A stretch of 64,000 bases of DNA. Source: an uncultured Desulfobacterales bacterium. Lineage in GTDB: Bacteria > Desulfobacterota > Desulfobacteria > Desulfobacterales > UBA11574. A program made the translations under genes and the position numbers. The stretch covers positions 6,094 to 70,093 of the forward strand of contig CALLDL010000033.1 in the NCBI GenBank assembly GCA_937998305.1. Reading direction: 5' to 3'. Positions 14,355-63,521 of the stretch are shown piece after piece. Every line of letters begins with the position of its first letter. Within the stretch, counting starts at the first letter, position 1. The notes under the pieces are model-generated. The model saw only the letters and a list, made by a program, of their open reading frames with translations, searched no databases and was not told the DNA's origin.

Positions 14355-15233
14355 TTACTTAGATTCGATATTTTTAGGCCTTTTTACTACGGTCAAAAGC
14401 ATCTTAAACCGTTTTACAGCGGTGACAGAATGGGGAATGTCCGCCGGCATAACCACGACCTGTCCTTTACCAACAGTCATTTCTTTTCCATCAATATTAA
14501 CCACCGCCTCACCATCCAAGATTTGCACCATTGCATCACCAGGCGCCGTATGCGTGCTGACTCCCTCTCCCTCGTCAAATGAAAACAGAGTTAAGCTAAG
14601 GGATGAATTTTGAGAAAATGTCCTGCTTACAACTCGTCCCTCTTCATATGCAACCAATTCATCGAGATTATGGGGTTCTGAGAATTTTATGTTTTTTATA
14701 AGTACGGGTTTGTCCATTTTTCCTCCTGAGCATTTTTGAAAGCCGGTTTCTTCCAGCCGGTTTCTGATGATAGTTTTTGACGGCACTCTACCCGAACATA
14801 TGACCTTTCCATTAATAATCAAGGCAGGTGTCCCCTTGACGTTGTATTTTGCGATTTCTTCCACATCTCTAACATGTTCAAGATCAGCAGTTAAGTTCAT
14901 TTCTGATAAAACTTCCATAACATCATTTTCAAGACTGTTACATAGGACACAACCTGCGCCAAGAACTTTAATTTCAAGCCCTTGATCGTTTTCATCATCA
15001 AAAGGCTGACCGAGAAATTTTCTAAATTCCCTGACAAACGCACGCCCATATTCTTTTTGAACCTTGTCGGAGATGTAATTCTTTTTTGACAGCCGGTTTA
15101 ATAATTCTTCGGCGACCACATCATCAGGTTGTTTAGAATATAACCCTGCTATGTCCTTAAAGGTTTCTTTAAGTCCCACAAAGCCGACTTTGTGTTTACC
15201 GATTTTTATCTGGGTTACATCAGATTTCGTCAT
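14355..15233 (-). CDS. fusion ORF: N-terminal domain plus thioredoxin-like (redox-active disulfide, Thioredoxin_3-type) domain plus C-terminal cupin domain
   Basis: GAGCVLC motif within KVLGAGCVLCNSL...INGKVICSGRVP. Cupin-like C-terminus HTAPGDAMVQILDGEAVVNIDGKEMTV...VMPADIPHSV. An internal AGGAGG-N4-ATG sits at the domain junction. Confidence 0.6.
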   Translation of the reverse strand: MTKSDVTQIKIGKHKVGFVGLKETFKDIAGLYSKQPDDVVAEELLNRLSKKNYISDKVQKEYGRAFVREFRKFLGQPFDDENDQGLEIKVLGAGCVLCNSLENDVMEVLSEMNLTADLEHVRDVEEIAKYNVKGTPALIINGKVICSGRVPSKTIIRNRLEETGFQKCSGGKMDKPVLIKNIKFSEPHNLDELVAYEEGRVVSRTFSQNSSLSLTLFSFDEGEGVSTHTAPGDAMVQILDGEAVVNIDGKEMTVGKGQVVVMPADIPHSVTAVKRFKMLLTVVKRPKNIESK

Positions 15234-28965: not shown

Positions 28966-29536
28966 CCAGTTTCATAGATTTCGAAAAAGTTATCTCAAGC
29001 TGGCATGGTTTTAAAAATGAGTATGGTTTGACTTCAACTTTATAGAAACTTGAAAACCGGATGGCTCATTAAACAGGGGAGCTTCACCTTTTTTATTTGA
29101 ATTAATCTGATTAGGGGGGAATTTTAGACTTAAATCCCCGAGCAGCAGAGTTGGGGAGACTCCGCGAGCTCGCCTAAAAGGCTCGCTTGCCTCCCCAACA
29201 TCTACCTCTCGGAAAGGTACCAGATATCAAAGTTTATCGGATTGAAGATTTCGTACCAAAATCATGTAAATTTCAGGCTTCAAAAAGTGAACCTTCAAGG
29301 CACACATTATCACACCCAGCTTATATTTTATAAATAGAAACATCTAAAATTGGATTTGACTCATCATAATACAATGAATATTTTTATGTTTTGCATTTCT
29401 TTTTCCACCTGATCTGAAGCACGTTTTTTTGTAAAATTAAACCGGGTCTGACATCTCAATTCGCATTTATCTGATACAATTTACTTCTAAAGCTGAATTT
29501 AATCTCTGTTTTAAAACTTTAAAAGTGGGTGACCCC

Positions 29537-31423
29537 ATGACGAAAGAAGGCTTTAAACGTAAACTATCCGCTATTTTCAGTGCTGATGTCAAAGGGTATA
29601 GCCGTCTGATGGGTGAGGATGATGAGGCGACCGTTCGCACTCTGACCGCCTATCGTGAAGTGATGTCTGTAGTCATCCAAAAGCATCGAGGACGAGTGGT
29701 GGACTCTCCGGGCGATAACATACTGGCTGAGTTTGCCAGTGCAGTGGATGCGGTGCGCAGCGCTGTGGAGATGCAGGAAGAGCTCAAGGTCAGGAATGCT
29801 GAACTACCTGAAGACCGCAAGATGGAGTTTCGCATTGGGATAAACCTTGGAGATGTGATCCATGAAAAAGAGCGAATTTATGGCGACGAGGTCAACGTTG
29901 CTGCCAGGATTGAGGGTTTGGCCGATGCAGGTGGCATCTGCATTTCGAGGAACGCCTATGATCAGGTTAAAAAGAAACTATCTTTAGGTTATGAGTATTT
30001 GGGAGAGCACTCTGTCAAGAATATCGATGAGCCCGTGCGGGTCTATCGAGTCCTGCTTGAGTCAGAAGCGGTTGGTAAAGTGATCAGCGAGAAAAAGGAG
30101 AGGCCGAGACGGTTGCAATGGGCAGCCGTGGCTGCAGTTATTCTGATTCTTGTTGTTGCAGTGGTGGCAATCTGGAATTTTTATTTGAGATCCGCCTTTT
30201 CTCCTGAGAAGGTTGCATCTTTAGAGAAAACGTCTATTCCTTTAACTGAGAAGCCTTCCATTGCAGTGCTGCCATTTAAAAACCTGGGTGGAGATCCAGA
30301 GCAAGAGTATTTCAGCGACGGAATCACCAACGACATTATTACCGACCTCTCAAAATTCCGCGAATTGTTGGTCATCGCCAGCAACACAGTATTTACCTAC
30401 AAGGATAAGTCGGTAAAAATTAAAGACGTAAGTCTGGACCTGGGTGTACGGTATGTATTGGAGGGAAGCGTCCAAAAGACAGGTGGTAAGGTGCGAATCA
30501 ATTCACAGCTTATTGATGCTACAACCGGTCATCATCTTTGGGCTGAACGCTATGACAAAGATTTAAAAGATCTTTTTAAATTACAGAACGAACTCGTCCA
30601 AACAATTGTATCAAAATTAGCCATTCAAATTGGCGAGATTGAACGTGGACGGGTAATGCGAAAGGACACCGACAACCTCCAGGCATATGATTATTTACTA
30701 CGCGGGCGGGAATATTTTTATCGAGGTACACGAGAAGACAATAAAAATGCCCGTTTAATGTTTCAACGAGCCATTGAAATTGATCCCCGTTATTCATCGG
30801 TTTACGCTGCTCTTGCATGGACCCATCTCAATGATTTCTTTTACGGTTGGACCATGTTTCCCAATAAACATCTTCAACGAGCACATGATATAGCAAAAGA
30901 GAGTTTAAACTTGGAAGAATCCAACGCCCTCGCTCACTCCGCACTCGGAGCCATTTATCTTCGCCGGGCGCAATATGACCTTGCTCTAAGCGAATTACAG
31001 CGAGCGATTGAACTTAATCCCAATGATACCCAAAGTCAAACTATGCTCGGTACGGTCATGCTATATTCAGGTCGAAAGGATGAGGCCATTTTTTGGAAAG
31101 AATCCGCTCTTCGCTTAAATCCACATTTTATTTTGGGGCCATACATGACTCTCGGGCAGGCATATTATCTAAATGGGCAATATGAAGATGCAATAACAAT
31201 ACTAAAGAAAGGATTGGCCAAAAAACCGGATTTTGTTGGACACTATATCATGTTGGCTGCAGCATATGCTCAAACCGGCTTTACCGTAGAGGCAAAGCGT
31301 TCGGCAGTCAAGGTACTCCGGTTGGACCCATTCTTTGAACTCAGCTCTTATGGAACGGTATTCCGCAATTCGGAAGATCGAGCCAAAATTGTCGATGGTC
31401 TGCGGAAAGCCGGTCTTAACTGA
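29537..31423 (+). CDS. class III adenylate/guanylate cyclase with TM helix and periplasmic TolB-N-like plus TPR domains
   Basis: Cyclase motifs LSAIFSADVKGYSRLM, GDNILAEFASAVDAVRSAVEMQ and FRIGINLGDV...GDEVNVAARIEGLADAGGICIS. TM helix WAAVAAVILILVVAVVAIW. C-terminal TPR-like repeats. Confidence 0.85.
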   Translation: MTKEGFKRKLSAIFSADVKGYSRLMGEDDEATVRTLTAYREVMSVVIQKHRGRVVDSPGDNILAEFASAVDAVRSAVEMQEELKVRNAELPEDRKMEFRIGINLGDVIHEKERIYGDEVNVAARIEGLADAGGICISRNAYDQVKKKLSLGYEYLGEHSVKNIDEPVRVYRVLLESEAVGKVISEKKERPRRLQWAAVAAVILILVVAVVAIWNFYLRSAFSPEKVASLEKTSIPLTEKPSIAVLPFKNLGGDPEQEYFSDGITNDIITDLSKFRELLVIASNTVFTYKDKSVKIKDVSLDLGVRYVLEGSVQKTGGKVRINSQLIDATTGHHLWAERYDKDLKDLFKLQNELVQTIVSKLAIQIGEIERGRVMRKDTDNLQAYDYLLRGREYFYRGTREDNKNARLMFQRAIEIDPRYSSVYAALAWTHLNDFFYGWTMFPNKHLQRAHDIAKESLNLEESNALAHSALGAIYLRRAQYDLALSELQRAIELNPNDTQSQTMLGTVMLYSGRKDEAIFWKESALRLNPHFILGPYMTLGQAYYLNGQYEDAITILKKGLAKKPDFVGHYIMLAAAYAQTGFTVEAKRSAVKVLRLDPFFELSSYGTVFRNSEDRAKIVDGLRKAGLN

Positions 31424-31475
31424 TACGAGACGATCTTATATAGTTCCAAGGGCGCCCCAAAGTTTTTTACGGCTA

Positions 31476-31967
31476 TCAATTCTCTTCGTTAAGCTTCACC
31501 CAGTTTTCGTCTGCCTTCTTTATAAATTCGTCGCCTTTTTCAGCAAATTTGTCTCTACCGTCCATGTTCCAGTTTAGATACAGTTTTCCATCGATAATTT
31601 TAAAAGCCTCAGGATCTACACCAGCAACCTGACCGGTTGCCGCTAAGCTCCCCGCTCAGTATCCCCCATATTTCGGGGCATAGCGGTCAGGATCAGCGAT
31701 AAAAAGATCCCGATTTTCAGCACTGGCAAAATACCACTTGGCATCATTCCAATTGTAAGAGAACTTGCCTCTGCCTTTCACTGCACGTCCTTCTTTAAAA
31801 TACGCAACGGTGTCGTATCCTTTAATCGCAACGCCAAGTATGTTGGTATTAATCTTCTTTTTTAAGGGTTTAGCATTCACCCACGCTGGTAGAGCTCCTG
31901 CCAGAACGACGGCCAACAAAAAGCCCAGAGTAACTTTTGAAACTTTATTTGAGCTTATATTTATCAT
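31476..31967 (-). CDS. periplasmic YHS-type domain selenoprotein (in-frame UGA = Sec at 31656-31658)
   Basis: The track ORF stops at ...YAPKYGGY. Read-through gives U-AGSLAATGQVAGVDPEAFKIIDGKLYLNWNMDGRDKFAEKGDEFIKKADENWVKLNEEN and ends at TGA 31476-31478. Cys-containing family members read GGYC at this point. A hairpin follows the UGA. Confidence 0.8.
31622..31642 (-). promoter_or_regulatory. SECIS-like hairpin downstream of UGA
   Basis: RNA CGGCAACC-GGUCA-GGUUGCUG: an 8-bp stem with a GGUC-containing apical loop, starting 14 nt after the UGA. Confidence 0.65.
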
Positions 31968-32586
31968 TCCAGAGCCTCCTTAAAATTAACATTGACGATA
32001 ACGTCAAGTGCTATAATTATGTAAATTTAGAATGAGAGAGGTAGATCATTATATTTCTTAAGATACGACAATGTGGTATGCGTGTCAAGGCGGGTATTTG
32101 ATTCCTGCAAAATAGAAACACATCGGAAAATAGTAAAGATCAGTGTGAACACATTTATTTGAAAGGTCTTTCTGTTCATTTGTTTTCAGATTTTAAGAAA
32201 ACTTTAAAGGGGTGATATAATACAGATACCTTATTTTAATGAAAACCTGGTCATTTCCTCAACACTATATATTGTATAATGTTGTTCCGATTCAAACCGA
32301 TTTTAATTTCACGATGCCTTGCCTTTATTAGTTCTCCGTTTAATTCAGTCAGAATGATAATCTGATCTCTTCTTCACCCCGATAAATATTCAGGTAGTCA
32401 TCTAAAAGATGAAAATATCATCCACCTCAAAACCCTTTGATATGTCTGACATATGGAAGCGTAAATCCAAGGTGCTCATGTTGAAAATATGGTCTCACAG
32501 ATCGTTTGAATTTATTCAGTTTTGATGATAGGTAAGAGTATCAATAAGATCTTACGATAAATGAAAAATATTGGAGGTTATATCAA

Positions 32587-60568: not shown

Positions 60569-62191
60569 ATGGAAAATCAAATTTTGAAAAGGCGGGCGAT
60601 TTTGAATAAAAAAATATTTATATTTGGAAACGGATCGTGTGCCCATCACCTTGCCAAAGAATTTCTGTCTTCGGGCGTAGATGTTATCCTTGCCACTTCA
60701 GATAAAACAGCTGATGTTTCTTCAACCATGGATTCTGTGGCATTGGAAATCCTCACCAACACAAAACTCCTTTCGTGCCAGGGGATTGTGGGGAATTTCA
60801 GGCTGACTGTAGTTTGCAATGGTGAAAGAGTAACAAAACGTGTTGCTGAAATTATTATTGCTGAAGAAGATCGGCGAAAACCGAATTTCTCGTTGTATGG
60901 TTTAAAGGCGGCTTCTAACGTTATCAGTCAATCCCAAATGAAAACGTTGCTGTTGGGATCATCACATGAAAAAAACATCCTTTCAGAAGCAAAAACGGTA
61001 GGTTTTTTTACCGGGCTTGTTAACGAAAGCCATCCGGTTGTCGCAGAAGAAATTATGCATTTGGCGCTTAACCTCCAGTCTGACTTTAATGTACAAACAT
61101 ATATCCTAACTAAAAATCTCAAAGTCGCAGGAAACGGTCTTGAAGCCCTTTATCGAAAAAGCAAAAAAGCCGGTGCAGTTTATATTAAGTTTACAGACAA
61201 TATTCCCGCCATCCACCAGAAAAGGGATAACGATATCCAAATCGAGTTCATCGACGAAATAACAACCAAAAAATTCAGACTGTCTCCGGATATAACGGTT
61301 GTAGATGAAACCATCGTTCCTTTTGAAAATGCTGCCCATCTTGCAGGGATATTGAATGTCGATACCGATCCTGGTGGATTTGTTCAGACGGATAATGTTC
61401 ATAGATATTGTGTGTTGACGAACAGAAAAGGGATTATGGCGGCAGGTCCTTCAAGAAGTATTCAGAATCGGGGTGATCAGATAATGGATGCTGAAAACGT
61501 TGCGCTTGCATCCGCCGGTATTCTGGTGGACCGATTGGCGCTGACAGCAGACAGGGCTGAAGTTGACACGGGACAGTGCATACGGTGTCTGACCTGCTAT
61601 CGTCTTTGTCCATACCATGCAATAACACTGAACACTCGGGTGACGGTTGTACCGGATGCCTGCGAACGGTGCGGCATTTGTGCCGCCCAATGCCCAAGGG
61701 GCGCTGTCCGTATAAAAGATCTTGAACCTGGGTCGGTCTTAGATGTGATTAAAATCGGCGACCCCATTCAAACCGAAAAGGCGTTTACGCCCTCTATTGT
61801 GGCGTTCTGCTGCAGCCGCTCGTCTGCCCAGGCCGGTGATCTGGCGCTGTGCATGGGCCATAACCTGCCTTCGGGGTTAAAGATCATTGAGGTGCCATGT
61901 GCGGGGAGTATATCTTATGATCACATCTTTGCAGCGTTTAGAAACCATGCTGACGGAGTTCTTGTGGCGACCTGCCATAAAGGAAACTGTCATTCAGAAC
62001 GGGGGAACATTTTTGCAGAACAAACTGTGGAACAGATAAAGGAGGTGTTCTCTCAAATCGGTTTTGAAAATGATCGTTTGCTTATACAAACCCTTGCGTC
62101 CAATATGGGAACGGAATTTGCTCAGATTGTAAATCGCTTTGAAGAGACCATTGTGGAGCTCGGCCCAAGCCGGCTTAAGAAGAATCAATAG
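60569..62191 (+). CDS. fusion protein: HdrA-like Rossmann-type N-terminal region, 2x[4Fe-4S] ferredoxin domain, and MvhD (hydrogenase iron-sulfur subunit D) domain
   Basis: CIRCLTCYRLCP and CERCGICAAQCP. MvhD-like C-terminus IVAFCCSRS...EVPCAGSISYDHIFAAFRNHADGVLVATCHKGNCH. Confidence 0.75.
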   Translation: MENQILKRRAILNKKIFIFGNGSCAHHLAKEFLSSGVDVILATSDKTADVSSTMDSVALEILTNTKLLSCQGIVGNFRLTVVCNGERVTKRVAEIIIAEEDRRKPNFSLYGLKAASNVISQSQMKTLLLGSSHEKNILSEAKTVGFFTGLVNESHPVVAEEIMHLALNLQSDFNVQTYILTKNLKVAGNGLEALYRKSKKAGAVYIKFTDNIPAIHQKRDNDIQIEFIDEITTKKFRLSPDITVVDETIVPFENAAHLAGILNVDTDPGGFVQTDNVHRYCVLTNRKGIMAAGPSRSIQNRGDQIMDAENVALASAGILVDRLALTADRAEVDTGQCIRCLTCYRLCPYHAITLNTRVTVVPDACERCGICAAQCPRGAVRIKDLEPGSVLDVIKIGDPIQTEKAFTPSIVAFCCSRSSAQAGDLALCMGHNLPSGLKIIEVPCAGSISYDHIFAAFRNHADGVLVATCHKGNCHSERGNIFAEQTVEQIKEVFSQIGFENDRLLIQTLASNMGTEFAQIVNRFEETIVELGPSRLKKNQ

Positions 62192-62297: not shown

Positions 62298-63521
62298 ATG
62301 ACATCACCATCTGAAATCATCGATATGGATCAACTCGATCACACCAGATGTAGAACCTGGCCGTTTTCCCAAGATTTTTGCGTGACTTGCGGCCTGTGTG
62401 CAAGTTCTTGTCCGGCTTCTGGAATCGATGGATTTGACCCGCGCATGCTGGTCCGAATGGTTTCTCTGGGATTTGTCGAGGATCTGGTAAACGCCCGATG
62501 GCCGTGGATATGCACCATGTGCGGTAAATGCGAAAATGTTTGTCCCATGCAGGTCGACATTGCCGATCTGATACGAAAAATTCGATCCAAAAGAGAACGT
62601 GAAAAGGTTCCGGGAATTTTACACAAGGGTCTTGCGGCGGCTTTGGAGACCGGCAATAATCTTCGCCTGCCAAAGGAAGATTTTATGTTCATCATCGAGG
62701 ATGTGGCCGAAGAAGTCGCCGAGGAACCTGGTTTTGAAGGGTTCAAAGCGCCCATTGACAAAAAGGGGGCAAACATACTGACCACCATACACAACAAACT
62801 GGTAAATACCCATACCGAAGATTTAAAACACTGGTGGAAGATTTTTCATGCGGCCAAAGAAGACTGGACCGTAACCTCGGAAAACTGGGAGGGTACCAAC
62901 TGGGGATATTTTACGGGTGACGATGATGCCATGAAGGTCATGGTCGGCCGGATCGTGGAGCAGATGAAGCGACTGGAAATAAAAAATCTTCTTTGCCCTG
63001 AATGAGGTCACTCCTATCTTGCGACCCGGTCGGGTCTTGAAAAATATTATCCTGAAGCACTCAAAAAAATTAGTGTGACCACGGTTTTTGACCTAATGAT
63101 CAAATATATTAAAGAAGGTCGCATCAAACTCGACAAATCGAGATTTATACAACTTGCCGCTTATCACGACCCATGTAATTACGGGAGAAAGGCCCAGAAG
63201 CATTTTGGACACGGTTATTTTGACGAGCCGCGCTGGATTATGGATCAGTGCCTTGAAAACTGGGTCGATCTTTATCCCAATAGAATGGATCAAATATGCT
63301 GTGGCGGGGGCGGTGGAACCATGACCACCGGATATAACGATGAACGTGTTTTTTATGCCAGAAAAAAAATCGATCAGATCAGGGCCACAGGGGCAAAGCT
63401 GATTGTGGTTCCCTGCCACAGTTGCCACGGTCAGTTTAATAATGTGAAATCCGAATACGATTTTGATGATCTTGAAGTGAAGTATCTGTGGGAACTGGTG
63501 GCCGACTGCCTGATTTTATAA
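62298..63521 (+). CDS. HdrD/GlpC-like Fe-S (2x[4Fe-4S] plus CCG-domain) selenoprotein; in-frame UGA = Sec at 63003-63005
   Basis: Track ORFs 62298..63005 and 63075..63521 are in the same frame, and the only stop between them is one TGA. N-terminal part: CVTCGLCASSCP and CTMCGKCENVCP. C-terminal part: CCGGGGG and VVPCHSCHGQ. The junction reads LLCPE-U-GHSYLA. A hairpin follows. Confidence 0.8.
63023..63036 (+). promoter_or_regulatory. SECIS-like hairpin downstream of UGA
   Basis: GACCC-GGTC-GGGTC, with 17 nt separating it from the UGA. The apical GGUC matches the hairpin after the other UGA (31622-31642). Confidence 0.6.

Follow-up and report, generated by a model that had tools for sequence, protein, structure and literature searches.

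Does the TGA that closes a 103-codon reading frame in an uncultured Desulfobacterales genome end a protein, or does it encode selenocysteine (Sec)? The question arises in a 64,000-nucleotide stretch of this genome (hereafter the window), where the reading frame at 31656-31967 on the reverse strand encodes 103 amino acids and terminates in ...DPDRYAPKYGGY-TGA (...KYGGY-TGA). Translation in frame past this codon adds exactly 59 codons (AGSLAATGQVAGVDPEAFKIIDGKLYLNWN...KLNEEN; the complete extension is AGSLAATGQVAGVDPEAFKIIDGKLYLNWNMDGRDKFAEKGDEFIKKADENWVKLNEEN) before a stop TGA at 31476-31478, which a TAG directly adjoins. These coordinates and this translation agree with an earlier note on the same DNA, which had read the gene as a truncated periplasmic YHS-type selenoprotein. 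From the evidence given below, we consider it very probable that 31476-31967 (reverse strand) encodes an exported 163-residue YHS-family selenoprotein in which UGA codon 104 is recoded to Sec. The parts of the gene on which the argument turns are as follows.

31476-31967, reverse strand: full-length gene of the YHS-family protein, very probably a selenoprotein; 163 codons, of which number 104 encodes Sec, followed by the TGA stop at 31476-31478

31656-31658, reverse strand: in-frame UGA, codon 104, in the motif G-G-Y-U; this column holds Cys or TGA in family loci

31479-31655, reverse strand: codons 105-163, the C-terminal half of the domain, absent from public gene calls

The read-through product belongs to a curated protein family. 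With U scored as C, residues 46-157 align to profile positions 2-112 of the 113 in NCBIfam model NF041384 ('YHS domain-containing (seleno)protein') at 149.9 bits against a cut-off of 70 (E = 3e-44). The match crosses the UGA, and the 163-aa protein both exceeds the cut-off and covers the profile, its G-G-Y-U aligning with the G-G-Y/F-C of homologues. The model and the family motif GxU are given in a 2026 review (PMC13188914). Pfam YHS (PF04945) matches residues 54-99 over the whole model length at 27.0 bits (E = 4.5e-6), below its gathering threshold of 30.3 bits; many close homologues carry a precomputed PF04945 match, so the YHS resemblance of this sequence, though genuine, is borderline. 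A protein search yielded 6389 relatives, including complete proteins, about 155-165 residues long, in which Cys stands opposite the UGA. Homologues of full length align end to end with the 163-aa product, and all of them keep the C-terminal half encoded by codons 105-163. The best match among species-representative genomes, at locus L009, is 77% identical. Invariant in both Sec and Cys forms are G-Y-D-x-V-A-Y, W-x-F, P-x-Y/F-G-G-Y/F-C and D-G-K-L-Y-L, and the motif that the earlier note had given for the Cys form, GGYC...DP..F.I.DGKLYLN, is the family consensus in the homologue alignment.

The codon at the UGA column was then read across family loci, 80 sampled from species-representative genomes and 80 from metagenomes. 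It could be read directly after P-x-Y/F-G-G-Y/F in 147 loci, of which 75 carry TGC, 47 TGT and 25 TGA. Cys is thus aligned at the UGA in 122 of the 147 loci, the pairing that the earlier note had proposed to look for, and the reading frame 3′ of the Sec/Cys codon is kept in all 147. The five TGA forms from named genomes all come from Deltaproteobacteria or Desulfobacteraceae, and Cys forms occur in many phyla, Desulfobacteraceae among them. The deltaproteobacterial lineage has been reported to be rich in selenoproteins (PMC13188914). The locus therefore shows the mark of a bacterial selenoprotein: an in-frame UGA opposite Cys in homologues, with coding sequence conserved on both sides.

A single base difference would be enough to turn TGC or TGT into the TGA at 31656-31658, which raises the possibility of a sequencing or assembly error. 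The identical TGA codon and downstream sequence are present on 8 independently assembled metagenome contigs from different samples, so the codon is not an assembly error, and the same TGA recurs in many diverged relatives. We accordingly assign the error explanation a negligible probability.

Sec and Cys forms can be closely related. Two Cys forms, L172 and L173 (TGC/TGT), are about 96% identical in protein sequence to the Sec form L089, and the codons immediately following the Sec/Cys codon, which encode the SECIS, account for around half of the substitutions that separate them; one example exchanges Thr ACC for Ser AGC and breaks a stem pair. The concentration of differences in these codons suggests a recent Sec/Cys switch accompanied by SECIS decay.

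The codons beyond the UGA evolve as part of one protein. In comparisons of the window gene with three diverged Sec-form relatives (L009, L089 and L092; dS about 0.8-1.1), Nei-Gojobori dN/dS was 0.124, 0.167 and 0.275 3′ of the UGA and 0.138, 0.138 and 0.283 in the mature upstream part. The equality of these ratios indicates that both halves are under the same purifying selection. The C-terminal part is conserved, selected and covered by NF041384, which bears out the suggestion of the earlier note that it continues the same domain.

For a Cys homologue of 67% identity, the AlphaFold model is confident over about residues 41-160 (10-residue block means of 95-99). Residues 105-160, with pLDDT of at least 95, pack within one compact domain in this model, and residues 11-26 form a low-confidence N-terminal helix. 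A sequence search of solved structures gave no match (best E = 1.1), and Foldseek against the PDB gave none at E ≤ 0.001, with best TM-scores of at most 0.30; there was only a local match of 28 residues (0.8 Å rmsd) to a YHS-like piece of toluene/o-xylene monooxygenase hydroxylase. We also considered a tandem YHS-like repeat of the two halves. This idea rests solely on a similar order of secondary-structure elements in both halves, and hhalign did not support it (probability 3.6%, 18 columns). The mature protein contains no Cys, so the Sec of G-G-Y-U would be its sole chalcogen nucleophile or ligand, through which it may carry out redox or metal-binding chemistry.

These data bear on whether the UGA is a real stop, so that either a 103-residue fragment alone is made or the gene is a pseudogene, derived from a Cys-form ancestor and inactivated recently. 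Public pipelines end the protein at 103 aa (P0011 and over 20 other clusters like it), reading frames across the window commonly stop with TGA, and no sel genes are seen within its 64 kb. Yet at least 25 diverged loci retain the TGA, the 59 downstream codons are open and under purifying selection as upstream, a hairpin specific to TGA forms comes after the UGA, and the curated family model needs both halves; the predicted fold, in which residues 105-160 would pack confidently into a single domain, argues in the same direction. Termination at the UGA is therefore highly improbable, and read-through to a 163-residue protein is the favoured reading.

Two overlapping hairpins that exclude one another can form in the mRNA downstream of the UGA.

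31622-31642, reverse strand: hairpin in the register given by the earlier note, CGGCAACC-GGUCA-GGUUGCUG; 8 bp, loop starting 21 nt after the UGA

31620-31637, reverse strand: alternative hairpin ACCGGU-CAGGUU-GCUGGU, in the register conserved among relatives

Both place G-G-U in the loop. The first begins 14 nt after the UGA (13-nt spacer) and forms the core of the minimum-free-energy structure for the 63 nt starting 4 nt before the UGA (-24.4 kcal/mol, z = -2.7, with 4 of 200 shuffles as good). In the window it is the more stable of the two, at -13.4 against -6.7 kcal/mol, and the same holds at L009 (-9.4 against -7.2 kcal/mol for the family register). Among the 17 Sec forms closest to the window, whose consensus hairpin is (A)CCGGCA-AGGY-UGCCGG(U), the family register (ACCGGCA-AGGU-UGCCGGU) lies 5 nt further 3′ and has the greater stability in 15; the first register prevails only in the window and in L009, its nearest relative. 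Thus the SECIS-like hairpin that the earlier note had described is real and the most stable one here, but its register is not that of the family. The shift in the window and L009 accompanies AAG to CAG (Lys to Gln) and GGC to GGU changes.

Covariation follows the family register. When the 17 Sec-form relatives were aligned, 89% of cells paired in this register, compared with 20-63% in partner-slid controls, and three pairs had changed on both sides (0 of 500 shuffles). The first register paired in 77% of cells, with no two-sided change, and did not rise above shuffles. Sec-form subgroups differ in the peptide that follows Sec, and each has a hairpin with a G-rich apical loop from about 19-26 nt after the UGA. 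In a second subgroup (post-Sec peptides AYAVSRGSTA and AYAVAMGTTA) the stems are AGCCGUG-GGUC-CACGGCU and UGCRAUG-GGNNN-CAYYGCA, with A-U/G-C exchanges between members and the same G-G-U type of loop.

A hairpin after the UGA is specific to UGA forms. The bSECISearch criteria reportedly comprise a G in the apical loop, a loop 16-37 nt from the UGA and a stability of about -7.5 kcal/mol or better. Our test, an approximation of our own to the bSECIS criteria and distinct from bSECISearch itself, required a loop start 16-37 nt after the codon, a G in the first two bases of the loop, a minimum of 4 bp and -7.5 kcal/mol or better. The window passes at -13.4 to -13.9 kcal/mol with the loop GGUCA. 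Of the 25 Sec forms, 20 have a hairpin at or below the cut-off, compared with 6 of the 122 Cys forms (Mann-Whitney p = 2e-15, a value that overstates independence because the loci are phylogenetically related), although the Cys forms are the more GC-rich. Four close Cys-form relatives show a graded loss, with hairpins of -6.1, -6.1 and -9.4 kcal/mol and none; the hairpin is partly encoded by the conserved residues T-G-K-V-A-G, so close Cys forms keep remnants of it. Folding energy of the whole region (63 nt from the codon) gave no separation between Sec and Cys forms (-20.4 against -18.0 ± 5.2 kcal/mol), and the two are distinguished only by the test that constrains position and loop. A Rfam search of 31300-32200 in E-value mode returned chance-level matches to eukaryotic snoRNAs and lncRNAs and no SECIS family.

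On the Sec reading, the mRNA hairpin just 3′ of the UGA, with its G-G-U apical loop about 21-27 nt on, would recruit SelB carrying Sec-tRNA(Sec), and translation would pass Sec codon 104 and proceed across the domain's C-terminal half as far as the genuine stop. The UGA might instead be read through without Sec, by near-cognate insertion of Trp or Cys or by a suppressor tRNA, to give a selenium-free full-length protein. The data on the downstream codons establish that they are translated and do not specify which residue is inserted, and four public calls (P0001, P0002, P0006 and P0007) have W at the UGA, but these derive from gene calling under code 4. The homologous column holds Cys, with which Sec is usually paired; both the spacing and the apical G-G-U loop are typical of SelB-binding elements; TGA forms are restricted to a selenoprotein-rich lineage; the window holds another known selenoprotein gene; and TGA is an ordinary stop elsewhere in it. 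Collectively, these observations leave read-through without Sec little room, and we judge SelB-dependent insertion of Sec to be the probable route.

Two further results concern decoding in this organism. Of the 32 long reading frames of the window, 13 terminate in TGA, and UGA accordingly does not act as a sense codon in general. Annotation of 30 window reading frames revealed no selA, selB or selD in the 64 kb, nor is there a tRNA-Sec, the only tRNA being tRNA-Ala. The second selenoprotein gene lies towards the end of the window.

62298-63521, forward strand: second selenoprotein gene, Fe-S oxidoreductase-like; UGA at 63003-63005, hairpin at 63023-63036

Its annotated reading frame (62298-63005, forward strand) encodes 235 aa, ends ...LLCPE-TGA and extends in frame by 171 codons to a TAA at 63519-63521. 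The full-length product scores 182 bits against HmcF/DsrK-type Fe-S/CCG proteins (profile positions 52-447), compared with 89.5 for the truncated frame, and Cys occupies the UGA column in 5 of 8 full-length homologues. Among the 120 matches listed, about 90 are close relatives that gene calling has cut at about 235 residues, one of them from Desulfonema magnum. The hairpin GACCC-GGUC-GGGUC comes 17 nt after the UGA, and D. magnum has GACCA-GGUC-UGGUC, a compensatory change. A known selenoprotein of Deltaproteobacteria, 'Fe-S oxidoreductase-like (GlpC)', has the same U-G-H motif (PMC13188914). Presence of a second known selenoprotein gene in the window is independent evidence that the organism decodes UGA as Sec, and indirect support for selA, selB, selC and selD in its genome.

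Several other observations were made on the window. The second selenoprotein can be described as an HmcF/DsrK/HdrD-like Fe-S and CCG-domain protein, and its gene comes after an HdrA/MvhD-like gene (60569-62191). A crude scan for TGA-interrupted reading frames missed both real cases, owing to its segment-length filter and because these two genes themselves end in or near a TGA, and its other matches overlap real genes in other frames. Uninterrupted reading frames include a CoA-disulfide-reductase-like gene (TIGR03385; 53612-54952, reverse strand) and an MTH895/ArsE thioredoxin-like gene (14355-15233, reverse strand); TIGR03385 is among the families with Sec-containing members in the 2026 review (PMC13188914). 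At 960-2990 on the reverse strand, a Rieske iron-sulfur protein (960-1490) adjoins a 462-aa b-type cytochrome. This cytochrome scores 288.3 bits, just below the 290-bit cut-off for ExtP (a b-type cytochrome of a selenite/tellurite reduction operon), and also has a weak ExtQ-like C-terminal part.

The start of the selenoprotein gene carries signals for translation and, as predicted, for export.

31872-31967, reverse strand: predicted Sec-type signal peptide, codons 1-32 (MINISSNKVSKVTLGFLLAVVLAGALPAWVNA, then KP), assigned heuristically

31975-31981, reverse strand: strong Shine-Dalgarno sequence AAGGAGG, 7 nt 5′ of the ATG, read from the sequence

32060-32088, reverse strand: promoter-like TTGACA-17-TATCTT about 90 nt upstream of the ATG, a consensus match only

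Inspection of the sequence together with a hydropathy scan points to a Sec-type signal peptide at the N-terminus. Lysines stand at positions 8 and 11, the most hydrophobic 19-mer spans residues 12-30, and VNA leads up to A32, a residue that hardly varies among homologues and after which cleavage is likely. The signal peptide of the earlier note is in keeping with this hydropathy peak and near-invariant residue, and remains a prediction from sequence; it would send the selenoprotein across the inner membrane. The promoter-like site matches the consensus at 10 of 12 positions, in a region with 8 such sites where 4.1 ± 2.0 are expected. The gene stands alone, its upstream neighbour being a divergent flavin-reductase-like gene. 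On the other side it faces a cyclase.

29525-31423, forward strand: class III adenylate/guanylate cyclase of 632 residues, convergent, 52 nt from the stop of the selenoprotein gene

Pfam domains and hydropathy give this cyclase one membrane helix (residues 199-217) and a TolB_N-like/TPR part, which is predicted to face the periplasm. The same cyclase family is found directly downstream in 37 of the 113 family loci with enough downstream DNA, and in 13 of 19 Sec forms. Thirty-five of these 37 pairs are convergent, and in the other two the downstream cyclase-family member is on the same strand. The cyclase lies within about 50-100 nt of YHS-(seleno)protein genes in about a third of family loci, and the pair spans Desulfobacterota, Rhizobium and Rhodospirillales (Alphaproteobacteria), Acidiferrobacterales (Gammaproteobacteria) and Bacteroidota. 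The architecture was identical in all 10 full-length cyclase neighbours tested, and independent gene calls agree on the arrangement. Besides the window, the loci with this gene pair include L009-L011, L015, L017, L018, L031, L036, L049, L063, L172, L174 and L175.

The convergent orientation rules out a shared transcript of the YHS gene and the cyclase. Their conserved proximity suggests that the YHS family may work with the periplasmic part of the cyclase. One possible form of this, which we put forward tentatively and hold to be rather less than probable, is that the YHS protein is a partner of the cyclase: a ligand-, redox- or metal-sensing subunit that would dock on the TolB_N-like/TPR part. 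Sensing would then fall to the single Sec or Cys, and the output of cyclic nucleotides would respond. A selenylsulfide between the two proteins was considered and rejected, since the only Cys of the cyclase, residue 139, is in its cytoplasmic catalytic domain. Our literature search found no paper linking the YHS-(seleno)protein family with the cyclase. This association is the only lead here that goes beyond published work, and the conserved pairing is a clue to the function of the whole family, Cys forms included.

The family itself has a publication record. Zhang and Gladyshev in 2007 listed a 'YHS domain protein' among new selenoprotein families of the Olavius algarvensis symbionts, with five YHS genes (four of them in the Delta-1 symbiont), Cys homologues and predicted SECIS elements (PMC1976440). 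The family reappears in the GOS analysis (PMC2398784) and is covered by two reviews (PMC9312934; PMC13188914, 2026). A literature search retrieved no report of 75Se labelling, mass spectrometry proof or function for family members. The selenoprotein reading of this locus is right but, given the publication of the family as a selenoprotein in 2007, already known: the window gene is an ordinary member of a described group of bacterial selenoproteins that are exported.

The public annotation at 103 aa results from truncation by gene callers. Public collections hold the selenoprotein cut at 103 aa (P0011 and about 20 other clusters), many clusters of this length being other UGA forms that end alike, and the four entries with Trp at the UGA also have an extra terminal Trp, the signature of code-4 gene calling. 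Both versions are annotation artefacts, and such truncations undercount selenoproteins in metagenome catalogues. The selenoprotein itself offers little new biology beyond confirming a member of a family with a curated NCBI model. To this it makes two small additions: a SECIS register shifted in this sublineage, and recent Sec/Cys switching in near-identical versions of the protein (L089 against L172 and L173).

Among known systems, the canonical YHS domain (PF04945) of copper P-type ATPases and of phenol/toluene monooxygenase hydroxylases aligns to residues 54-99 of the window protein, which lacks Cys and has its sole Sec/Cys position outside the Pfam-matching stretch. The Pfam YHS domain often carries two Cys. 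With Sec outside this stretch and no Cys in the protein, metal binding is not established for the NF041384 family. In E. coli fdhF, the SECIS is a hairpin within the coding sequence directly 3′ of the UGA, with an apical G-G-U loop about 20 nt after it; the window hairpin is alike in position and loop and differs in stem sequence and exact spacing.

Cys-form members of the family (for example those of Rhizobium, Vibrio jasicida, Blastocatellia and cyanobacteria) share the length and invariant residues of the window protein, and many share the convergent cyclase neighbour, but TGC or TGT replaces TGA and nearly all are without a downstream hairpin. Compared with most Sec-form relatives, the window gene and its nearest relative have their most stable hairpin 5 nt upstream of the usual register. 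The closest known counterpart is the YHS domain protein of the Olavius algarvensis Delta-1 symbiont, which belongs to the same curated family with the same G-Y-U motif and Sec/Cys pairing, and likewise has a post-UGA stem-loop with guanosines in the apical loop and a host lineage of sulfate-reducing Deltaproteobacteria. There is no difference of substance between the two: the window gene is another orthologue, from a Desulfobacteraceae-like uncultured genome.
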